Shown piece by piece: positions 13,086 to 56,290 of a stretch of DNA of 63,128 nt. The position numbers and the translations under genes were made by a program. Every line of letters begins with the position of its first letter. The first letter of the stretch is position 1. This stretch comes from an uncultured Lachnospiraceae bacterium (GTDB lineage: Bacteria; Bacillota; Clostridia; Lachnospirales; Lachnospiraceae): positions 1-63,128 of the forward strand of contig CATOJW010000019.1 of NCBI GenBank assembly GCA_951800365.1, in the 5' to 3' direction. The notes beneath the pieces are model-generated. The model had not been told where the DNA came from and searched no databases. It saw only the letters and a program-made list of their open reading frames with translations.

Positions 13086-13631
13086 GGACGCCAAATTCGA
13101 AAACAGTGAGCAGCCTGCTGTTCCAGTTTCCAAAAAGCAAGAAGTTCTAACTTTTTTCCAAAGTCACTGCAGGCTGCCCACTGTTTTCGAATCTGACTGT
13201 TTCTTGACTCCGAAACAAAAAAGAATGATGTCTAAACTTTACGGAAAACTTGCTCTGTAATAAAATATAACTTCTACTGTTATTCAGCCAACAGCGAGAG
13301 GCGGTTTGCTCCTGTCCTTTGCCAGCGACTTCGGAGAACGGTTAGAAAGTTTTGGGCTTCTGTTCGAAAACTTAGAATTTTTTGCATATCCTGCTTCCAT
13401 GCAGGGTATGCAAAAAAAGGGGCGTGTTTAGCCCGGAGAATAGAGAAGAGGCTGTTTTGTAGCTGGAAAAATTCTTCCTTACACCAATTATGTTTCGGCT
13501 GAAATGAGGGCGAATTGCGCCCCGGTTCGTCCGGTTGGATGAACCGAAATCAGAAGCCCTAGACTTTCTTACCGTTTGGAGCGGAGCAGGCAAAGGACAG
13601 GAGCAAACCGCCTCTGGCGTCCGGTGAAAGC
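13086..13631. repeat. Composite A/B structured repeat locus: core-less B arms (13086-13216), linker, then full A element (13290-13631)
   Basis: B arms ggacgccaaattcgaaaacagtgagcagcctgc / gcaggctgcccactgttttcgaatctg are joined directly with no core. The A element has 26-bp perfect terminal arms and a core with gcatatcctgc..gcagggtatgc and gggcgaattgcgccc hairpins. Confidence 0.85.
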
Positions 13632-37599: not shown

Positions 37600-38051
37600 C
37601 CGGACACCAAAGATAATTTGCTTTCACCGGACGCCAGAAGCGGGGGGCTCCTTTCCTCTGGCTGTTGATTAGCTCAAGGCAGAAAGATAAGATTTTTTTC
37701 GTTCCGGGGTCAGAAAACAGCCAGATTCGAAAACGGTGAACCGCCTGCAGTGACTTTGGAGAAAAGTTAGAAGTTCTTGACTTCTGCTCAAAAACCTAAG
37801 ATTTTTTTCACATACTGCTTTCATGCAGTGTGTGAAAAAAAAGGAGCGTGTTTAGCCCGCATATGTTTAAGGAAGCGATTGTTTTATGGCAGATAGAATC
37901 ATCTGAAACGCCAATTTCGTTCTGGCTGCCATGCGGGCGAATTGCGCTCCGGTCTGTCCGGTCAGAAAAATAGAACGGCAGAAGTCTAGAACTTCTTACT
38001 TTTTGGAAATCGGAACAGCAGGCGGTTCACCGTTTTCGAATCTAGCGTCCT
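37600..38051. repeat. Composite repeat: degenerate A arms, then linker, then full B element (arms ggtgaaccgcctg / caggcggttcacc)
   Basis: The B core hairpin variant cacatactgc..gcagtgtgtg has a compensatory change relative to cacatcctgc..gcagggtgtg. Confidence 0.85.
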
Positions 38052-43141: not shown

Positions 43142-43606
43142 TTATTTATCCTGATTTTCATTCTTATCCTGCCCGTCTTTCTTAATTTCTTCACTTTGCG
43201 CCGTTCTAGTAAGTGTCATCTCCGCTTCTAAACGAATAATTGTCTTTTCCTGATCACTGACCGTCTTTCGAAGCATTTCTAATTCTTTTTCTTCTTCCTC
43301 CATTCGAAGTTTTAATCCTACCAATTCATGTTTTAAATTAGAAACCTCCTTATTGCGATCTTCTAATTCTAAACTTGCTGCATCTGCATTTTTTTTCGCC
43401 TTGTAGTAATCATCTGCTACATTCAGGTACATCAGGATATTTTGTACTTCACGGCTCTGACGTTTATACCCCTCTGCCATACGTACCTCCGAAAGCTTTG
43501 CATTGATATATGCAGCCACTTTATTCAGATACTCCGGATCTTCATATCCACTTAATGTATATACCTTTCCGTCAATCACCACTTGTACATTATTCTTCAG
43601 TGCCAT
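43142..43606 (-). CDS. zapA: Cell division protein ZapA
   Basis: ZapA N-terminal domain (VQVVIDGKVYTLSGYEDPEYLNKVAAYIN) plus C-terminal coiled coil. Confidence 0.75.
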   Translation of the reverse strand: MALKNNVQVVIDGKVYTLSGYEDPEYLNKVAAYINAKLSEVRMAEGYKRQSREVQNILMYLNVADDYYKAKKNADAASLELEDRNKEVSNLKHELVGLKLRMEEEEKELEMLRKTVSDQEKTIIRLEAEMTLTRTAQSEEIKKDGQDKNENQDK

Positions 43607-43724
43607 CCAATATCCTCTCCCTGCATTATTCTTCCTCTGTTCTCGTTAAGTTTTATTATAATCAATTTCAGAAAAAAGCACAAGCACTTTATAAGAGGAT
43701 CTTCATAAGTCTTTTAAAATTTGA

Positions 43725-44510
43725 TGATAGAGGACGTCAGATTCGAAAACGGTGGGCAGCCTGCTGTTCCGGTTTCCAAAAAGCAAGAAGTTCTAAGACT
43801 TCTGCCGTTTTATGCATCCAACCGGACAGACCGGGGCGCAATTCGCCCTCATTACAACCAAAACAAAACGGGTGTAAGGAAGGATTTTACCAACCATAAG
43901 ACGACTTCTTTCCTATCATCCGGGCTAAACACGCCCCTTTTTTTTCACACCCTGCATAGAAGCAGGATGTGAAAAAAATCTTAGGTTTTCGAGCAGAAGT
44001 CCAAGAACTTCTAACTTTTTTCCAAAGTCACTGCAGGCTGCCCACCATTTTCGAATCTGACTGTTTCTTGACTCCGAAACAAAAAAAGATACTCATCCAA
44101 GTTTTTCTTAAACCTATCCTGATGCAAAACTAACCAAAGTAATGAAATAGATTTCTGCCGCTATCCAACTAACAGCGAGAGGCGGTGGGCTCGTTTCCTT
44201 TGTCTGTGACTTCGGAGAACGGTTAGAAAGTCTTAGGCTTCTGCGGAAACACCTAGAATTTTTTGCATATCCTGCTTCCATGCAGGGTATGCAAAAAAAG
44301 GGGCGTGTTTAGCCCGGATAATAGGGAAGAGGATGTTTTATGGCTGATAAAATCTTTCCTTACACTCATTGTGTTTCGGCTTTAATGAGGGCGAATTGCG
44401 CCCCGGTTCGTCCGGTTAGATGCACATAGACAGAAGCCATAGACTTTCTTACCGTTTGGAGCGGAACAGACAAAGGAAACGAGCCCACCGCCTCTTGCGT
44501 CCGGTGACAT
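43725..44510. repeat. Composite repeat in reversed arrangement: B element (minus, 43725-44095), linker, A element (plus, 44180-44510)
   Basis: A arms gaggcggtgggctcgtttcctttgtct / agacaaaggaaacgagcccaccgcctc covary relative to other copies. The B arm contains a T·G-compatible pair. Confidence 0.9.
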
Positions 44511-44541
44511 CCAATAAATAAAATCCAGCAAAACCCCCTCC

Positions 44542-45531
44542 TTATTTTAACCCCAAATGCCGATAAGCCAATTCCATTGCCACCCTCCCCCGAGGAGTCC
44601 GCTGAATCAATCCATTTTGAATCAAATAAGGCTCAATCACTTCCTCTAACGTTCCAGCATCCTCTCCCAAAGCCGCTGCTAAAGTATCTAATCCACAAGG
44701 TCCTCCTGCAAATTTTTGAATCAAAGTCGTTAAAAACACCCGATCACTATTATCCAATCCAAATTTATCCACTTCCAGCAAATCCAACGCAAAATTTGCT
44801 ACTGCCTCTGTAATCACTCCATTATATTTTACCTGAGCAAAATCCCTTACCCTTTTTAAAAGCCGATTTGCAAGCCGTGGCGTCCCTCTGCTTCTCCTTG
44901 CCATCTCCATTGCACCAGCAGCCTCTATCTCTACTTTTAATACTTTTGCCGAACGAAGTAAAATCATCTGCAATTCCTGCGGCGTATAAAATTCCAGCCG
45001 ATGAATTACTCCAAACCGATCCCGCAAAGGAGCAGTCAAAAGTCCTGCCCGTGTCGTTGCTCCTACTAACGTAAATTTTGGTAAATCCAGACGAATGGAT
45101 CGTGCCGTAGCTCCCTTTCCAATTACAATATCAATCGCAAAATCTTCCATAGCCGGATAAAGAACTTCTTCCACCTGCCGATTTAAACGATGAATTTCAT
45201 CAATAAACAGCACATCCCCTTCCTGCAGATTATTTAAAATCGCCGCAATTTCCCCCGGTTTTTCAATCGCAGGTCCAGAAGTAATCTTTAAATTTGTTCC
45301 CATTTCATTTGCAATAATTCCGGCAAGCGTAGTCTTTCCAAGACCGGGCGGACCATAAAATAAGACATGATCCAACGGTTCTTTCCGGCTCTTTGCTGCC
45401 TCAATATAAACCTTTAAATTTTCCTTTGCCTTTGCCTGACCAATATAATCCTCTAAAAGCTGCGGTCTAAGATGATTTTCTACGCTGTTATCTTCTTCTG
45501 TCAGCTCTGTTGTTATCATTCTCTTTGCCAT
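44542..45531 (-). CDS. ruvB: Holliday junction branch migration helicase RuvB
   Basis: AAA+ Walker [10 protein letters not shown], RuvB C-terminal winged helix. Confidence 0.95.
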
Positions 45532-45556
45532 AATATAAACCTTTCCGTTCTATTGG

Positions 45557-46168
45557 CTACCGACCAATATTTTTTAAAGAAGCTTTTAATAAAGCTTCTA
45601 CCGTCATTCCCTCCGTTATCGGAACTGCACGAACCGCACGAAGTGCATCAGTAGGACGATATCCCAAAGCTGCCAGTGCCTGTACGGCATCATTTTGAAT
45701 CTCTGCTGTCTGTCCGAAAGAAACATTTTCTCTTTCCGATATCATCGCCTGTTCAAATGCTTCCTCCAATTTTAATTTATCTTTTAATTCTATCACCATC
45801 TTCTGTGCCGTTTTATTGCCAATTCCCGGAGCTTTTGCAATCGTTTTTGCATCTCCCGACAATACGGCAAAACGCAGATCGTCCACAGAAATCGTAGAAA
45901 GAATCGCCAATGCTCCTTTTGGTCCAATCCCGCTTACTCCCAAAAGAAGCTGAAACATATTTCGCTCTTCTCTATTTAAAAAACCATATAAGTTCAAAAT
46001 ATCCTCTTTTTTATAAAAATAAGTAAACAGCAAAACCTCACTGCCTAACGCCGGAAGTGCAGATACGACAGAAGCAGAAACTGAAATCAAATAACCAATT
46101 CCCTGATTTTCCACTACAACAAAATCTGTTCCGGTTTCTTGCAGTTCCCCTCTTATATAAGAAATCAT
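45557..46168 (-). CDS. ruvA: Holliday junction DNA-binding protein RuvA
   Basis: RuvA domains I-III, HhH motifs (GIGPKGALAIL). Confidence 0.95.
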   Translation of the reverse strand: MISYIRGELQETGTDFVVVENQGIGYLISVSASVVSALPALGSEVLLFTYFYKKEDILNLYGFLNREERNMFQLLLGVSGIGPKGALAILSTISVDDLRFAVLSGDAKTIAKAPGIGNKTAQKMVIELKDKLKLEEAFEQAMISERENVSFGQTAEIQNDAVQALAALGYRPTDALRAVRAVPITEGMTVEALLKASLKNIGR

Positions 46169-46273
46169 TTTATTTTTCCTTCCTTTTTTTATAACGTTTT
46201 CGATTTCTAATCGAACATATATACGATTGTAGCAGATCTTTTTTTATATGACAAGTACCTCTGACCAGAAAAC

Positions 46274-46309
46274 ACATCCGTTTCATAAATTTTTAAGCAC
46301 TTCTAAAAA
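46274..46309 (+). repeat. 36-bp direct repeat, left copy (acatccgtttcataaatttttaagcacttctaaaaa)
   Basis: 33/36 identity with 47172-47207; the pair flanks an AT-rich 0.86-kb insert. Confidence 0.8.
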
Positions 46310-46534
46310 GAGCTGTCGCACTAAACGAAAATAATACAAAATATAGCAATTTAAAACTTTAATATATACTATATTTTGTATGTATTCCTCTTAATGCGAC
46401 AGCCCCAATCAAACATACTGGTTTTTATAATCTTTCATCTAATACCCCATACATATTTTCTATTTTTTTGACATCATAGAAAAAATAACAATAAATTTAA
46501 TTTAAATACTAAACATGAAAATTTTTAATCATAA

Positions 46535-46897
46535 TTATTTATTTTCTGCCTCTAATGGTACAATCGCTAAAGTTTTTCCTAAAGGAGCTAAAACTTTTAA
46601 AATTGTATCTAACTGTGGATCAGTATTACCTTTTTCCATTCTTGCAATAATAGGCTGTTTTACTCCACTTAATTCTTCCAATTTTTTCTGACTTATTCCT
46701 TTTTCTTGTCTTGCCTTTATTAATTCACCTATAAGAGCTACTCTCAAGTTACTTTTTGTTTTTTCTTCCGGTGTAAGAATACTGTCCATAAATTCCAAAA
46801 CATTTCCACCAACAGCATCCGATCCACGTTCATTCAGATCCCTAAGTTTTTTTTGTGTTTGTGCTATAGCTTGTAAATATTCTTTATCTGTTCTCAT
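46535..46897 (-). CDS. XRE-family HTH protein (HigA-like antitoxin candidate)
   Basis: C-terminal HTH_XRE (ISQKKLEELSGVKQPIIARMEKG). Confidence 0.65.
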   Translation of the reverse strand: MRTDKEYLQAIAQTQKKLRDLNERGSDAVGGNVLEFMDSILTPEEKTKSNLRVALIGELIKARQEKGISQKKLEELSGVKQPIIARMEKGNTDPQLDTILKVLAPLGKTLAIVPLEAENK

Positions 46898-47008
46898 TAC
46901 GTTTCTTTCTTCCTCTCCTGATAATCAATTAAATTTCATTTTGCTTGTTTTATTTCTCGTTGTGGGGTTTTTCGTGTTTACTTTATAAAAACATGTAACA
47001 GAACAAAA

Positions 47009-47098
47009 CTATTTATCTTTTTTATTCACTAACTTTGTTATATATTCCTTTACTGGTTCTTTGCCATTTTTATCTTTATAAAAGCGTATTTCGTACAA
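47009..47098 (-). pseudogene. Truncated HigB/Gp49-family toxin gene (29 codons, TTG start, premature stop)
   Basis: Encodes (L)YEIRFYKDKNGKEPVKEYITKLVNKKDK*. The N-terminal signature of Gp49/HigB (DUF891) toxins is present and preceded by an aggaggg RBS. The reading frame does not continue past the stop. Confidence 0.5.
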
Positions 47099-47171
47099 AA
47101 CTATTATCCCTCCTGTTAAAATATATTATACTTTAACACTATTGGAATGTCAATAACTTTAAAGTTATTAT

Positions 47172-47207
47172 CACGTCCATTTCATAAATTTTTAAACACT
47201 TCTAAAA
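47172..47207 (+). repeat. 36-bp direct repeat, right copy
   Basis: acgtccatttcataaatttttaaacacttctaaaaa. Confidence 0.8.
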
Positions 47208-47263
47208 ACCTGTTTCCTATTCCAATTTAAAATAAACGCTGACACATCTGCTGTTATCCAATC

Positions 47264-47497
47264 AACAGCCAGAGGCGGTTTGCCCAATTCCTTTGACTGC
47301 AACTTCGGAGAATGGCTAGAAAGTCTTTGGCTTCTGTGGAGATACCTAGAATTTTTTGTACATCCTGCTTCCATGCAGGGTGTGCAAAAAAAGGGGCGTG
47401 TTTAATTGCGCCCCGGTTCGTCTGGTTGGATGTACGCAGATACAGAAGCTGTAGACTTTCTTACCATTCAGAGCAAAGCAAGCAGAGGGACGCCCAG
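47264..47497 (+). repeat. A element with internal deletion of the middle of the core
   Basis: Has the arms and the gtacatcctgcttccatgcagggtgtgc hairpin, but about 110 bp of core between gcgtgttta and attgcgcccc is missing. Confidence 0.8.
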
Positions 47498-47668
47498 ACT
47501 TTTCGTAAATTTTTGTTACTTCTTTTGCTTCTAATAGTGTACTCATAATACAATCTCCTTTTTTATTTTTCTGTTATATAATACTGCTATAAACAAAAAA
47601 ATAAATGAGTAATTCCAGCATATTTTTTACATAATTTACTCAATTAAAAATACTGGTAAACTTAATTT

Positions 47669-47775
47669 AGGGGGACGCTGGAATTGAAAAGAAGATCTAT
47701 TTAGGATCTGCTTTCGCTTAGCATTTCTGATGACCCTTCATAGACCTTCTTTCCAATTCCAGCTATTTCTATCAG
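47669..47775 (-). repeat. Truncated type C repeat, copy C5 (arms only)
   Basis: gggggacgctggaattgaaaagaagatctat ... atagaccttctttccaattccagc; lies 33 bp downstream of the oxidoreductase stop. Confidence 0.65.
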
Positions 47776-47807
47776 CCTCAAATAATAACGTCCTTTCTGA
47801 AAAATAT

Positions 47808-48959
47808 TTAATATCCAAATATTTGTGCTGCCTGTTTCATTTTCTGAATAATTTCTACTCCAAAAGGACAATTTTTTTCACAATTTCCGCAAGCAATACA
47901 CTCAGAAGCATGATGTTCCAATAGTTGATAGTGATCCGCTACAGTTTCCGGTACTGCTCCCTGTGCCAACGATAAATTTAAATATTTATTGACATCTGCT
48001 ACAGAAATTCCAACTGTACAAGGCGCACAATGTCCACAATACATACAGTTTCCTTTCAAATGAAACTTTTCCACCTGTGTCAAAATTTTAGTATAATCCC
48101 GCTCCTCTTTTGAAACTTCATAATAACGTACCAATTTTTCCATCTCTTCTATCGAATGACATCCTGCCATTACCGCTGCAACTGCAGGTCTGGTCAGACA
48201 ATATTCTATACACTGATATTCATTAAAAGCCACCCCAAATGGAGAAAGTTCTGCTTTCAGCATATCCCCGCCGCCAAATACTTTCATAACATCAATCGCT
48301 ACACCCTCTCGCTCACATAACTCATATAATTCCTTTCGTTCCGGGTGAATCCCGTCCGTTCCATTTTTATAATTTTCCAGATTCCAAAGATCCTCACAAT
48401 TCTCAGAAGACGGCTGCATATCATAAGCAGCATTTACAGAAAACATCAGTACATCCAAAACCCCGGTTTGCACCGCTTTTTTTGCAATAAAAGGATTATG
48501 AGAACTCATACCAATTCCCCGAATCTGTCCTTTTTCCTTTAATTCTTTACAATAATCAATCAATTCCCCCTGAAATATGGTCTTAAAATCCTCTTCTCCA
48601 TCTACATAATGAATCATTCCAATATCCAAATAATCTGTTCCTAATCTATGTAACTGATCTTCAAAAGCTACCTTTACCTTTTTCATCTCTCGTGTTCGAA
48701 GATACTGTCCGTTTTCCCATGCTGAACCCAAATGCCCCTGAAGCACCACATGATCTCGCCGTCCCTTTATTGCTTTCCCCATAAAATCTCGAAAAACAGG
48801 ATTTGGCGTATACATATCAATAAAATTAATTCCAAGCTGCACTGCCCTGTCAAACATAGCTAAAAATTCTTCCTCAGATTTTCCTATAAATCCCTCACAT
48901 CCTAATGCAATTTCACTTACTCTTATCCCATTACAGCGTTGAAGTTCCCGATATCTCAT
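47808..48959 (-). CDS. Aldo/keto reductase fused to a 2x[4Fe-4S] ferredoxin-like domain
   Basis: AKR core plus C-terminal CMYCGHCAPC / CIACGNCEKNCP cysteine clusters. Confidence 0.75.
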   Translation of the reverse strand: MRYRELQRCNGIRVSEIALGCEGFIGKSEEEFLAMFDRAVQLGINFIDMYTPNPVFRDFMGKAIKGRRDHVVLQGHLGSAWENGQYLRTREMKKVKVAFEDQLHRLGTDYLDIGMIHYVDGEEDFKTIFQGELIDYCKELKEKGQIRGIGMSSHNPFIAKKAVQTGVLDVLMFSVNAAYDMQPSSENCEDLWNLENYKNGTDGIHPERKELYELCEREGVAIDVMKVFGGGDMLKAELSPFGVAFNEYQCIEYCLTRPAVAAVMAGCHSIEEMEKLVRYYEVSKEERDYTKILTQVEKFHLKGNCMYCGHCAPCTVGISVADVNKYLNLSLAQGAVPETVADHYQLLEHHASECIACGNCEKNCPFGVEIIQKMKQAAQIFGY

Positions 48960-50089: not shown

Positions 50090-50465
50090 ATTGGATTTCA
50101 CCGGACGCAAGAGGCGGTTGAATAGCGGTAGAAATCATGTTTTATTACAGAGTAGATTTTTAGAAAAATTTAGATACAATTCTTTTTTTGTTTCGGCATC
50201 AAAAAACAGCCTGATTCGAAAACAATAGACAGCCTGCAGTGACTTTGAAAAAAAGTTAGAAGTTCTTGACTTCTGCTCGAAAGCCTAAGATTTTTTTCAC
50301 ATCCTGCTTCCATGCAGGGTGTGAAAAAAAAGGGTTGTGTTTAGCCCATGTAATAAAAAAGAGGTTGTCTTATGGTTGGTAAAATCTCCCCTTACACCAA
50401 CTTCGTTTCGACTGCAGTGAGGGCGAATTGCACCCCGGTCTGTCGGCTGTCTATTGTTTTCGAAT
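50090..50465. repeat. Composite repeat: A stub, then linker, then B element with shortened right arm
   Basis: B arms cgaaaacaatagacagcctg / ctgtctattgttttcg are a unique but complementary variant. Confidence 0.85.
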
Positions 50466-50612
50466 CTGGCGTCCTCTTAAATTCCAAAAGCCTAATCAAA
50501 GTTATTATTATTATAATTTTTCAAAAAATTTCCACTTTAAATTAAAAATTTAGTATTAAGTTTTTATTATAAATATTTACAACAAATTTCACCCCTGCTC
50601 TATTTTCCGGCA

Positions 50613-53274: not shown

Positions 53275-54212
53275 CTTTCACCGGACGCAAGAGGCGGTTT
53301 GCTCCTTTTCTTTGCTTGCTCCGCTCTCCGAACGGTAAGAAAGTCTAAGGCTTCTGTATCTAAGCACATCCAACCGGACGAACCGGGGCGCAATTCGCCC
53401 TCACCACAGCCGAAACCCAACAAATGTAAGGAAAGATTTTATCAGCCATAAAACATTCCCTTCCCCATCATCCGGGCTAAACACGCCCCTTTTTTTGCAT
53501 ACCCTGCATGGAAGCAGGATATGCAAAAAATTCTAGGTGTTCCCACAGAAGCCAGACTTTCTAACCATTCTCCGAAGTCGCCGACAAAGAAAAGGAGCAA
53601 ACCGCCTCTCGCTGTTAATCGGATCACGGAAAAAATTATAAAAAATTATATTTTGTCACTTTATTCTATAAGTCAAAATTAATTTTATCTTCCAGTAAAA
53701 TAAGTACAAATTTTGCAGTAATCTTTTATTAGATGACAATAATTTTCCTGAATCATATAAAATAAAAGATTTCTAAATCCATATCCTTTCTCTGCTATAT
53801 TTAAAAATTTTTAAAACTCTTATGAAATACAAAAGTTTGGAATAAAATTCTTCTTTGTTTCGGAGTCAAGAAACAGCCAGATTCGAAAACCGTGAACCGC
53901 CTGCAGTGACTTTGGAGAAAAGTTAGAAGTTCTTGACTTCTGCTTAAAAACATAAGATTTTTTTCACATACTGCTTCCATGCAGTGTGTGAAAAAAAAGG
54001 AGCGTGTTTAGCTCGCATATGTTTTGGAAAGCGATTGTTTTGTGGCAGATAAAACCTTTTGGTATATCAATTTCGTTTTGGCTGCCATGCGAGCGAATTG
54101 CGCTCCGGTCTGTCCGGTTGGATGTAGCCTCAATGCAGAAGTCTTAGAACTTCTTACTTTTTGGAAACGTGGAACAGCAGGCGGTTCACGGTTTTCGAAT
54201 CTGGCGTCCCCC
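53275..54212. repeat. Composite repeat: A element (minus, 53275-53612), expanded 250-bp AT-rich linker, B element (plus, 53862-54212)
   Basis: A arms gctccttttctttg / caaagaaaaggagc are a variant. B arms aaaaccgtgaaccgcctg / caggcggttcacggtttt. Confidence 0.85.
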
Positions 54213-55829: not shown

Positions 55830-56290
55830 TTTCACCGGATGCGAAAAGCGGTTTGCTCCTCGCTGTTGGTTAAATAGCAGTAGAAATAATATTTTATTAC
55901 AGAACAAATTTTCCGCAAAATTTGGATCCCATTCTTTTTTTATTCCGGTGTCAAAAAACAGCCAGATTCGAAAACGGTAGGCAGCCTGCAGTAACTTTGG
56001 AAAAAAGTTAGAAGTTCTTAGACTTCTGCTCGAAAACCTAAGATTTTTTTCACATCCTGCTTCCATGCAGGGTGTGAAAAAAAAGGGGTGTGTTTAGCCC
56101 GGATAATAGGGAAGAAGATGTTTTACGACTGGTAACATCCTTCTTTACACCAATTCCGCTTCGGCTGAAAGGAGGGCGAATTGCACCCCGGTCTGTCTGG
56201 TTGGGTGCACAAAGATACAGAAGTCTTAGAACTTCTTACTTTTTGGAAACCGGAACAGCAGGCTGCCTACCGTTTTCGAATCTGGCGTCC
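55830..56290. repeat. Composite repeat (A stub, linker, full B) inserted between the response-regulator and histidine-kinase genes
   Basis: B arms ggtaggcagcctg / caggctgcctacc; fills the 578-bp RR-HK spacer. Confidence 0.85.

Follow-up and report, generated by a model that had tools for sequence, protein, structure and literature searches.

Insertion sequences (IS) of the ISAs1 family (an ISfinder family) are 1.2 to 1.5 kb long, with short terminal inverted repeats and a target duplication of about 8 to 10 bp. In composite transposons and IS cointegrates, two IS of the same family lie in direct orientation around passenger DNA, and the outer IS tip is where the unit joins the host DNA. A frequent kind of cassette on Lachnospiraceae mobile elements is the toxin-first toxin-antitoxin (TA) module that joins a Gp49/HigB-like toxin to an XRE antitoxin. 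In these Gp49 (PF05973)-XRE or HigBA-like modules, the two genes overlap or abut, and they are preceded by a consensus promoter with palindromic operators. Degraded TA loci and orphan antitoxins have been catalogued in Klebsiella (PMC7192599) and in E. coli (PMC10790755). The genome surveys show orphan antitoxins beside toxin remnants in abundance, with anti-addiction as a proposed role (PMC7192599); the roles discussed in the literature for orphan antitoxins include this one, or none at all.

Here, we analyzed a locus of an uncultured Lachnospiraceae bacterium in which these components occur together. In the window (the whole stretch of DNA analyzed, 63,128 nucleotides), the segment in question lies between an aldo-keto reductase (AKR) gene and ruvA, with ruvB beyond ruvA, and the list of open reading frames (ORFs) places all genes of the neighborhood on the minus strand. 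Our main reading, to which we assign a probability of roughly 0.85, is that the segment is decayed mobile DNA between AKR and ruvA, in which scars of ISAs1 ends bracket a degraded TA cassette that arrived by IS-driven movement. Every component is of a known kind (ISAs1 scars, a HigBA-like Gp49-XRE module, and an orphan antitoxin), and the whole is ordinary mobile-DNA debris.

An initial annotation of the segment had described a low-GC islet bounded by 36-bp direct repeats matching at 33 of 36 positions, and both observations held. The 36-mers at 46274-46309 and 47173-47208 are identical at 33/36 positions (34/37 when the preceding C is included) and lie 899 bp apart; the coordinate originally given for the first copy was correct, and that for the second was off by one. 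The GC content of 46274-47207 is 27.4%, compared with 39.2% for the window, 39.9% for ruvA, and 38.1% for the AKR gene. At up to three mismatches, the 36-mer has only two copies in the 63-kb window and had no occurrence in 100 dinucleotide shuffles. The features of the locus are as follows.

44542-45531, minus strand: ruvB
45557-46168, minus strand: ruvA
46226-46254, minus strand: native promoter of ruvA (TTGTCA-17-TACAAT, extended by TG), intact; the tip of IS copy A lies 18 nt away
46273-46309, minus strand: repeat A, the outer tip of IS copy A, consisting of the inverted repeat CACATCCGTTTCATAAA and the codons …LEVLKNL*
46273-46500, minus strand: remnant of IS copy A, ~230 nt, corresponding to roughly the final 140 nt of the IS
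46310-46405, minus strand: long hairpin downstream of the XRE gene, with 35-nt arms and UUUUU after it on the minus strand
46535-46897, minus strand: intact XRE-family helix-turn-helix (HTH) gene, 120 aa, with Pfam matches to HTH_3 and HTH_37
46898-47098, minus strand: Gp49/HigB-type toxin pseudogene, codons 1-29 and ~82-118 in different frames
47125-47153, minus strand: TA promoter, TTGACA-17-TATAAT, 12/12 consensus positions
47152-47169, no strand: perfect palindrome AATAACTTTAAAGTTATT, presumed operator, overlapping the -35 hexamer
47172-47214, minus strand: repeat B (47172-47208) and the rest of IS copy B, in the same orientation as copy A
47247-47515, plus strand: copy, with internal deletions, of a structured repeat family of ~350 nt, adjoining IS copy B
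47497-47546, minus strand: putative start of an ABC-ATPase-like gene, ~17 codons (MSTLLEAKEVTKIYEKS) with a ribosome-binding site, cut by the structured repeat
47808-48959, minus strand: AKR gene

On the minus strand, the 36-mer reads TTT TTA GAA GTG CTT AAA AAT TTA TGA (FLEVLKNL*) and then AACGGATGTG. It comprises the end of a transposase gene (the stop and the 8 codons before it, LEVLKNL*) and a 17-bp terminal inverted repeat. Because the final transposase codons run into the inverted repeat, the repeats are IS ends. When metagenome contigs were scanned for exact matches to the core of the repeat, three loci came up (L044, L045, and L046). In all three, the 36-mer opens a conserved element whose left flank differs from locus to locus, so that together with copies A and B of the window there are five different outer flanks. 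The element in L046 (positions 792-1983) is 1,192 bp long and encodes a 367-aa protein; the one in L045 is 1,198 bp long, and its transposase gene is frameshifted. Both have 17-bp terminal inverted repeats (CACGTCCGTTTCATAAA) at their two ends. A perfect 10-bp target duplication (TCTTTTTTAT) flanks the L045 element, and no target duplication was found around the L046 element. The L046 transposase (802-1905) matches the NCBIfam model NF033564, "ISAs1 family transposase," with 305 bits (E = 5e-91; cutoff, 70), and it also matches Pfam DDE_Tnp_1 and DDE_Tnp_1_assoc. The intact relatives of the 36-mer combine a family transposase, inverted repeats at both ends, a target duplication, and varied insertion sites. 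The 36-mers of the window are the same end, the one bearing the 3' end of the transposase gene, of two truncated ISAs1-family copies in the same orientation. A near match of the intact IS among plasmid records was not found, and the element may be an unnamed ISAs1-family member from uncultured Lachnospiraceae.

This identity bears directly on the proposal that the 36-bp repeats are att-like sites or a duplicated target. The 0.86-kb segment would then be a discrete integrated module, and the repeats would be a target duplication or the attL and attR sites of an integrase acting in trans. In its favor, a pair of direct repeats at a distance of 899 bp is far beyond chance, the enclosed DNA is AT rich and foreign in content, and TA modules often ride on integrative elements. 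These points notwithstanding, the 36-mer forms the end of an IS that encodes a transposase and sits at unrelated sites, the only full-length elements bounded by the 36-mer are such IS copies, and the ISAs1 target duplication is 10 bp rather than 36 bp. No recombinase ORF lies between AKR and ruvB, and a scan of viral contigs for the 36-mer core gave no match. An empty site holding a single 36-mer, which the module reading predicts, did not turn up either: a metagenome scan for the junction of ruvA-side flank, 37-mer, and far-side flank found nothing, and the corresponding spacer of a sister species (L047, below) is empty and lacks the 36-mer. Since the far border of the inserted DNA also lies at ~47800 and not at repeat B, we regard the att or target-duplication reading as highly improbable. 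As the case illustrates, a small AT-rich cassette may be flanked by short direct repeats that are solo IS ends and not att sites, a lesson whose significance is mostly at the level of annotation and extends little beyond it.

Compared with L045 and L046, which have the DDE transposase, the length of ~1.2 kb, the 17-bp inverted repeats, and (in L045) the 10-bp duplication of the family, the window keeps only truncated single ends of ~230 nt and ~45 to 75 nt, without a transposase or an opposite end. Copy A begins with repeat A, which is 97% identical to nt 2-37 of the intact IS (L046:792-1983) and whose translation corresponds to transposase residues 360-367. Further in, IS nt 58-86 match 46406-46435 at 90%. 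The translation of 46500-46408, LNLLLFFL*CQKNRKYVWGIR*KIIKTSMFD, is identical to transposase residues 322-352 at 15/32 positions and contains in-frame stops; this match is weak by itself (E of about 9), and its position and order are as expected. Copy B (47171-47214) is 93% identical to IS nt 1-44, and the translation of repeat B (NRFLEVFKNL) corresponds to residues 358-367. Decayed sequence of this copy possibly continues to ~47246, so that copy B would measure ~45 to 75 nt. Each of the two copies has one mismatch to the 17-bp inverted repeat, and in both, the IS interior points toward higher coordinates. They differ from each other at 3/37 positions, each with private G-to-A changes relative to the intact IS, which fits two copies decaying separately.

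What survives of the transposase in the window is the last 8 to 10 codons per copy and some 31 decayed codons at copy A. We found no opposite IS end and no full-length IS copy in the 63-kb window, nor any full-length ISAs1 copy tied to the genome of the window's species. Neither another copy of the 10 bp that copy A presumably targeted (GACCAGAAAA) nor any trace of the ancestral spacer between AKR and ruvA came to light when we looked for them. The IS-flanked unit is presumably immobile, because two identical ends in direct orientation without a transposase cannot transpose, and the repeats would have no present function. Three Logan contigs (L053, L054, and L056) begin at 46306-46308, the inner edge of a 32-nt k-mer common to copy A and the intact IS. 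The presence of further IS copies in those samples would be expected to produce such a break, which is a circumstantial hint of them.

In both copies, the distance from the IS tip to a -35 hexamer is exactly 18 nt; the hexamers are those of the TA and ruvA promoters. This spacing would suit a cis-regulatory 36-mer, an upstream activator or UP-like site held at a fixed promoter distance, whose likeness to an IS is secondary. In L020, L047, and L048, the ruvA promoter and the CGTATATATGTTCG motif that follows it are conserved, and the 36-mer is absent; the intact TA modules in L037 and L038 have the same promoter as the window, again without it. In the intact IS, moreover, the 36-mer is coding sequence plus inverted repeat. 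A regulatory origin is therefore barely credible, and the 18-nt spacing of the IS tips may reflect coincidence, a preference for targets upstream of promoters, or survivorship.

To place the borders of the foreign DNA, we compared the locus with relatives found through RuvA homologues (L047, 91% identical; L048, 81%; L049, 78%). AKR and ruvA are separated by 233 nt in L047 and by 110 nt in L049, and an FtsX-like gene lies between them in L048. The homology of L047 to the window stops at 46272/46273 on the ruvA side, which is the tip of IS copy A to the base, and resumes at 47800 on the AKR side, 600 nt past repeat B. The foreign block is consequently 46273-47800 and not the 0.9-kb islet. On this comparison, it is a lineage-specific 1.53-kb mosaic absent from the sister species; none of L047, L048, and L049 contains the segment. 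The picture of a small integrated module was correct in that the DNA is foreign to the locus and mistaken in that the repeats do not delimit the insert. A RuvA scan of species-representative genomes, a set that lacked the window's species, gave L020 (77%) as the best match; with only 263 nt upstream of ruvA, that sequence is uninformative about the site itself, although it does preserve the ruvA promoter. The AKR-ruvA spacer is a variable hot spot in this Lachnospiraceae lineage.

The inner junctions place the TA cassette relative to the two IS remnants. The stretch of the cassette that is homologous to the intact modules L037 and L038 starts at 47171, just outside the tip of IS copy B, so that copy B adjoins the cassette on the upstream side of the operator and promoter. 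At the other side, homology to relatives ends ~24 nt past the XRE stop codon. There, a GC-rich terminator of their own follows in L037, L042, and L043; in the window, IS remnant A follows instead.

Two independent insertions of the same IS, one on either side of a TA cassette that was already resident upstream of ruvA, followed by decay, could in principle give a similar arrangement without a role for the IS copies in the arrival of the cassette. IS families often strike the same AT-rich intergenic region repeatedly, the 3/37 differences between A and B are as expected for separate old copies, and the AKR-ruvA spacer does vary among relatives, as the FtsX-like gene of L048 attests. Had the cassette come first, however, non-IS foreign DNA would be expected between the copy A tip and the native ruvA promoter, and the border of nonhomology with the sister species falls on that tip to the base. 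The downstream junction of the cassette lies inside IS copy A and not outside it, and the shared orientation of the copies is that of a directly repeated composite or a cointegrate. We consider a resident cassette unlikely.

The TA cassette most likely came by IS-driven DNA movement, because it is an IS tip that meets the host DNA, with the cassette toward the interior of that IS. One route would be a composite-transposon-like IS-TA-IS unit that moved by using its outer ends, a step that we infer from the present arrangement. Alternatively, the cassette may have sat beside an IS on a plasmid or another element, and that IS may have recombined with one already at ruvA. Later deletions would have taken most of both IS copies, the terminator of the cassette, and the original AKR-ruvA spacer. 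The locus resembles composite transposons and IS cointegrates in that two IS of one family, in direct orientation, flank passenger DNA and in that an outer IS tip joins host DNA; it differs in that both IS are truncated and the far outer end is missing, so that here the architecture itself is deduced. As neither the opposite IS end nor the target duplication of copy A nor the original spacer survives, any order of events is conjectural.

The HTH gene at 46535-46897 was confirmed by its Pfam matches (HTH_3, E = 7e-12; HTH_37). Its product has 6,873 homologues and is 72 to 85% identical to many of those in Lachnospiraceae. Among the four closest homologues that we looked up, P0005 and P0008 are encoded directly downstream of an intact Gp49 toxin of 121 to 129 aa; P0003 (in L043) has only a 5'-deleted toxin remnant, and P0004 (in L042) is cut by the end of its contig. 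Close XRE homologues led to two intact modules, L037 (Gp49 of 129 aa as called, plus XRE) and L038 (Gp49 of 121 aa, plus XRE). Judged by homology and gene order, the XRE protein of the window is the predicted antitoxin of a Gp49/HigB-XRE type II module and is now an orphan.

The toxin start noticed in the initial annotation is present as a 29-codon ORF with a TTG start (47009-47098, MYEIRFYKDKNGKEPVKEYITKLVNKKDK*), and it aligns to residues 1-29 of intact 121- to 129-aa Gp49 toxins. The remnant is not limited to this start: the overlooked C-terminal part persists in another frame at ~46898-47005 (SFVLLHVFIK*TRKTPQREIKQAK*NLIDYQERKKET*) and ends at the XRE start codon. Aligned to L037 and L038, the toxin shows a 158-nt internal deletion that removed residues 30-81 and left 1-29 and ~82-118 of 121, and the remnant carries two in-frame stops. 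A peptide joined from the two pieces matches Pfam Gp49 (PF05973; E = 6e-6). Where a single frameshift or nonsense change had been expected, the lesion is thus a deletion accompanied by nonsense codons. These codons differ between strains. A 99.3% identical strain (L008) has the same deletion, with CAA at the window's TAA at 46980 and TAA at the window's CAA at 46947, and the 158-nt deletion is common to all strains examined. The toxin is therefore dead and drifting neutrally, and strain-specific nonsense codons beside one shared deletion mark a true pseudogene and not an assembly error. A sequencing error, raised at the outset as a possible cause of the short toxin, was rejected, as independent assemblies covering the region have the same 158-nt deletion.

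The proposal that the toxin was inactivated while the antitoxin persisted stood: opposite the deleted and interrupted toxin, the XRE ORF, its promoter, and its operator remain. The XRE ORF was intact in every copy examined in full (19 contigs and L008 translated). The TA promoter is kept in the intact modules L037 and L038, and the palindrome is conserved in both, twice in each; in the window, a second, degenerate copy lies between the -35 and -10 hexamers. The antitoxin presumably binds the palindrome at -35 as its operator, and its gene is probably still transcribed from the consensus promoter and still self-repressing through the palindrome, as far as can be read from these conserved motifs. 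The window shares with Gp49-XRE modules the toxin-first order, the overlapping or abutting genes, and the consensus promoter with presumed palindromic operators. Unlike them, its toxin lacks residues 30-81, contains stops, and cannot poison the cell; without an intact toxin, the locus is a former member of the type II class and not a working module. It also resembles the catalogued orphan antitoxins, since the antitoxin has been kept beside a toxin remnant in its original toxin context; it differs from them in nothing substantive and comes from another phylum. The cassette offers a clean example of TA decay after capture, with the toxin lost first and the antitoxin and operator persisting. The 5'-deleted toxin in L043, which belongs to the same family and accompanies an XRE protein 85% identical to that of the window, is an independent second orphan.

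Between two diverged strains, the XRE gene has 3 nonsynonymous and 2 synonymous changes, so that selection on it is not demonstrated. It is doubtful that the orphan has been kept as an anti-addiction or immunity factor against incoming Gp49-type toxins or for a promoter that feeds read-through into ruvAB. The incoming toxins of the immunity reading would be those of the many Lachnospiraceae plasmids and mobile elements with homologous modules. Plasmid and phage collections held no near match to the islet; the only matches there were of the XRE gene, at ~70% nucleotide identity, in Streptococcus satellite phages.

At the population level, the segment appeared to be uniform. Through identical or near-identical RuvA and XRE proteins, we retrieved 26 contigs of the same species from at least 15 samples. 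All had the same filled structure at 98.9 to 100% identity, and presence/absence polymorphism of the segment was not observed among them.

Remnant A also contains the long hairpin at 46310-46405. As RNA, it folds with -53.3 kcal/mol (z = -9.9). The 97-nt segment replaces IS nt 38-57, which are 20 nt in the intact IS, and no counterpart of the hairpin was found in the intact IS or elsewhere in the window. An Rfam search over 43500-47800 gave only chance miRNA-like matches to hairpins. Together with its U-run, the hairpin is probably the intrinsic terminator of the XRE transcript. Transcripts of the cassette would then stop within remnant A, and ruvAB probably keeps its own conserved promoter.

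Beyond IS copy B, the foreign block holds two further pieces, the copy of the structured repeat and a gene start. The stretch from 47497 to 47800 consists of the start of the ABC-ATPase-like gene and its upstream region; the ABC-ATPase assignment is tentative and draws on an N-terminal motif only. The gene start is cut by the structured repeat that adjoins copy B. We considered the 36-mer as a part of this adjacent family and ruled this out, as other copies of the family do not contain it. With at least 14 copies in the window, the ~350-nt structured repeat family is the more unusual object nearby.

A family of highly structured repeats with a unit of about 350 nt looks more unusual than the IS-flanked toxin-antitoxin (TA) segment. 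The 63-kb window holds at least 14 copies, which fall into two subfamilies and are frequently arranged as divergent pairs.

Copies of the structured repeat in the window
13273-13628, plus strand, structured repeat copy
33489-33844, minus strand, structured repeat copy
33905-34248, plus strand, structured repeat copy
37699-38043, plus strand, structured repeat copy
43739-44082, minus strand, structured repeat copy
44154-44508, plus strand, structured repeat copy
47247-47515, plus strand, structured repeat copy
50188-50522, plus strand, structured repeat copy
53277-53633, minus strand, structured repeat copy
53855-54202, plus strand, structured repeat copy
55940-56283, plus strand, structured repeat copy
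59265-59618, minus strand, structured repeat copy
59952-60296, plus strand, structured repeat copy
62809-63128, minus strand, structured repeat copy

The consensus fold of 11 copies (RNAalifold) has 84 pairs, and compensatory double changes occur at 26 of these. It also contains invariant G-U pairs, which render the fold strand specific. An Rfam search with the repeat matched no family. The repeat is missing from the ruvB-zapA spacer of the sister-species contigs L048 and L049, where only 126 to 156 nt separate the called genes, and is therefore insertional. We also compared the region downstream of ruvB (equivalent to window positions 43700-44540) in the metagenome contigs with identical ruvAB (L001 to L009). 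Directly past two structured repeats 3' of ruvB, these contigs have at least five differing gene contexts (ZapA, EF-G, a histidine kinase, a pseudouridine synthase, and a 503-aa ORF). Either the repeat gave rise to chimeric joins during assembly, or it mediated genuine rearrangements.

A structured repeat also truncates a minus-strand ORF that starts within 47497-47800 behind a good ribosome-binding site. Its product, MSTLLEAKEVTKIYEKS, resembles the N terminus of an ABC ATPase. Upstream of the ORF lies an inverted repeat with 32-nt arms (47677-47708 and 47732-47763). Region 47497-47800 has no counterpart in the sister species represented by contig L047.

Each of the two IS tips (46273 and 47172), the ends of truncated ISAs1-family copies, is separated by exactly 18 nt from the -35 hexamer downstream of it, that of the ruvA promoter (46254) and that of the TA promoter (47153), respectively. 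The two 18-nt spacers have no sequence relationship, and the equal spacing may reflect chance, target preference, or selection. Directly at and 3' of the ruvA -10 hexamer, the sequence TACAATCGTATATATGTTCGATT (46205-46226, minus strand) is unchanged in the related contigs L020, L047, and L048, although RuvA is only 77 to 91% identical there. It includes a Cheo-box-like half-palindrome, CGAACATATATACG (plus strand), a candidate LexA operator that would place ruvAB under SOS control.

Elsewhere, in contig L046, an intact ISAs1 copy (792-1983) and a tmRNA gene (309-648) are some 140 nt apart, and the IS copy is next to DNA that looks like an island or prophage. No target duplication was found around this copy, which suggests that IS copies recombined at the locus. 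The same TA family has a further, independent orphan antitoxin (85% identical) in contig L043 (786-1335). The 5' two-thirds of its toxin gene are gone, and a divergent GntR-family gene adjoins the remnant. Toxin loss appears to have occurred repeatedly within this Gp49/HigB-XRE family.
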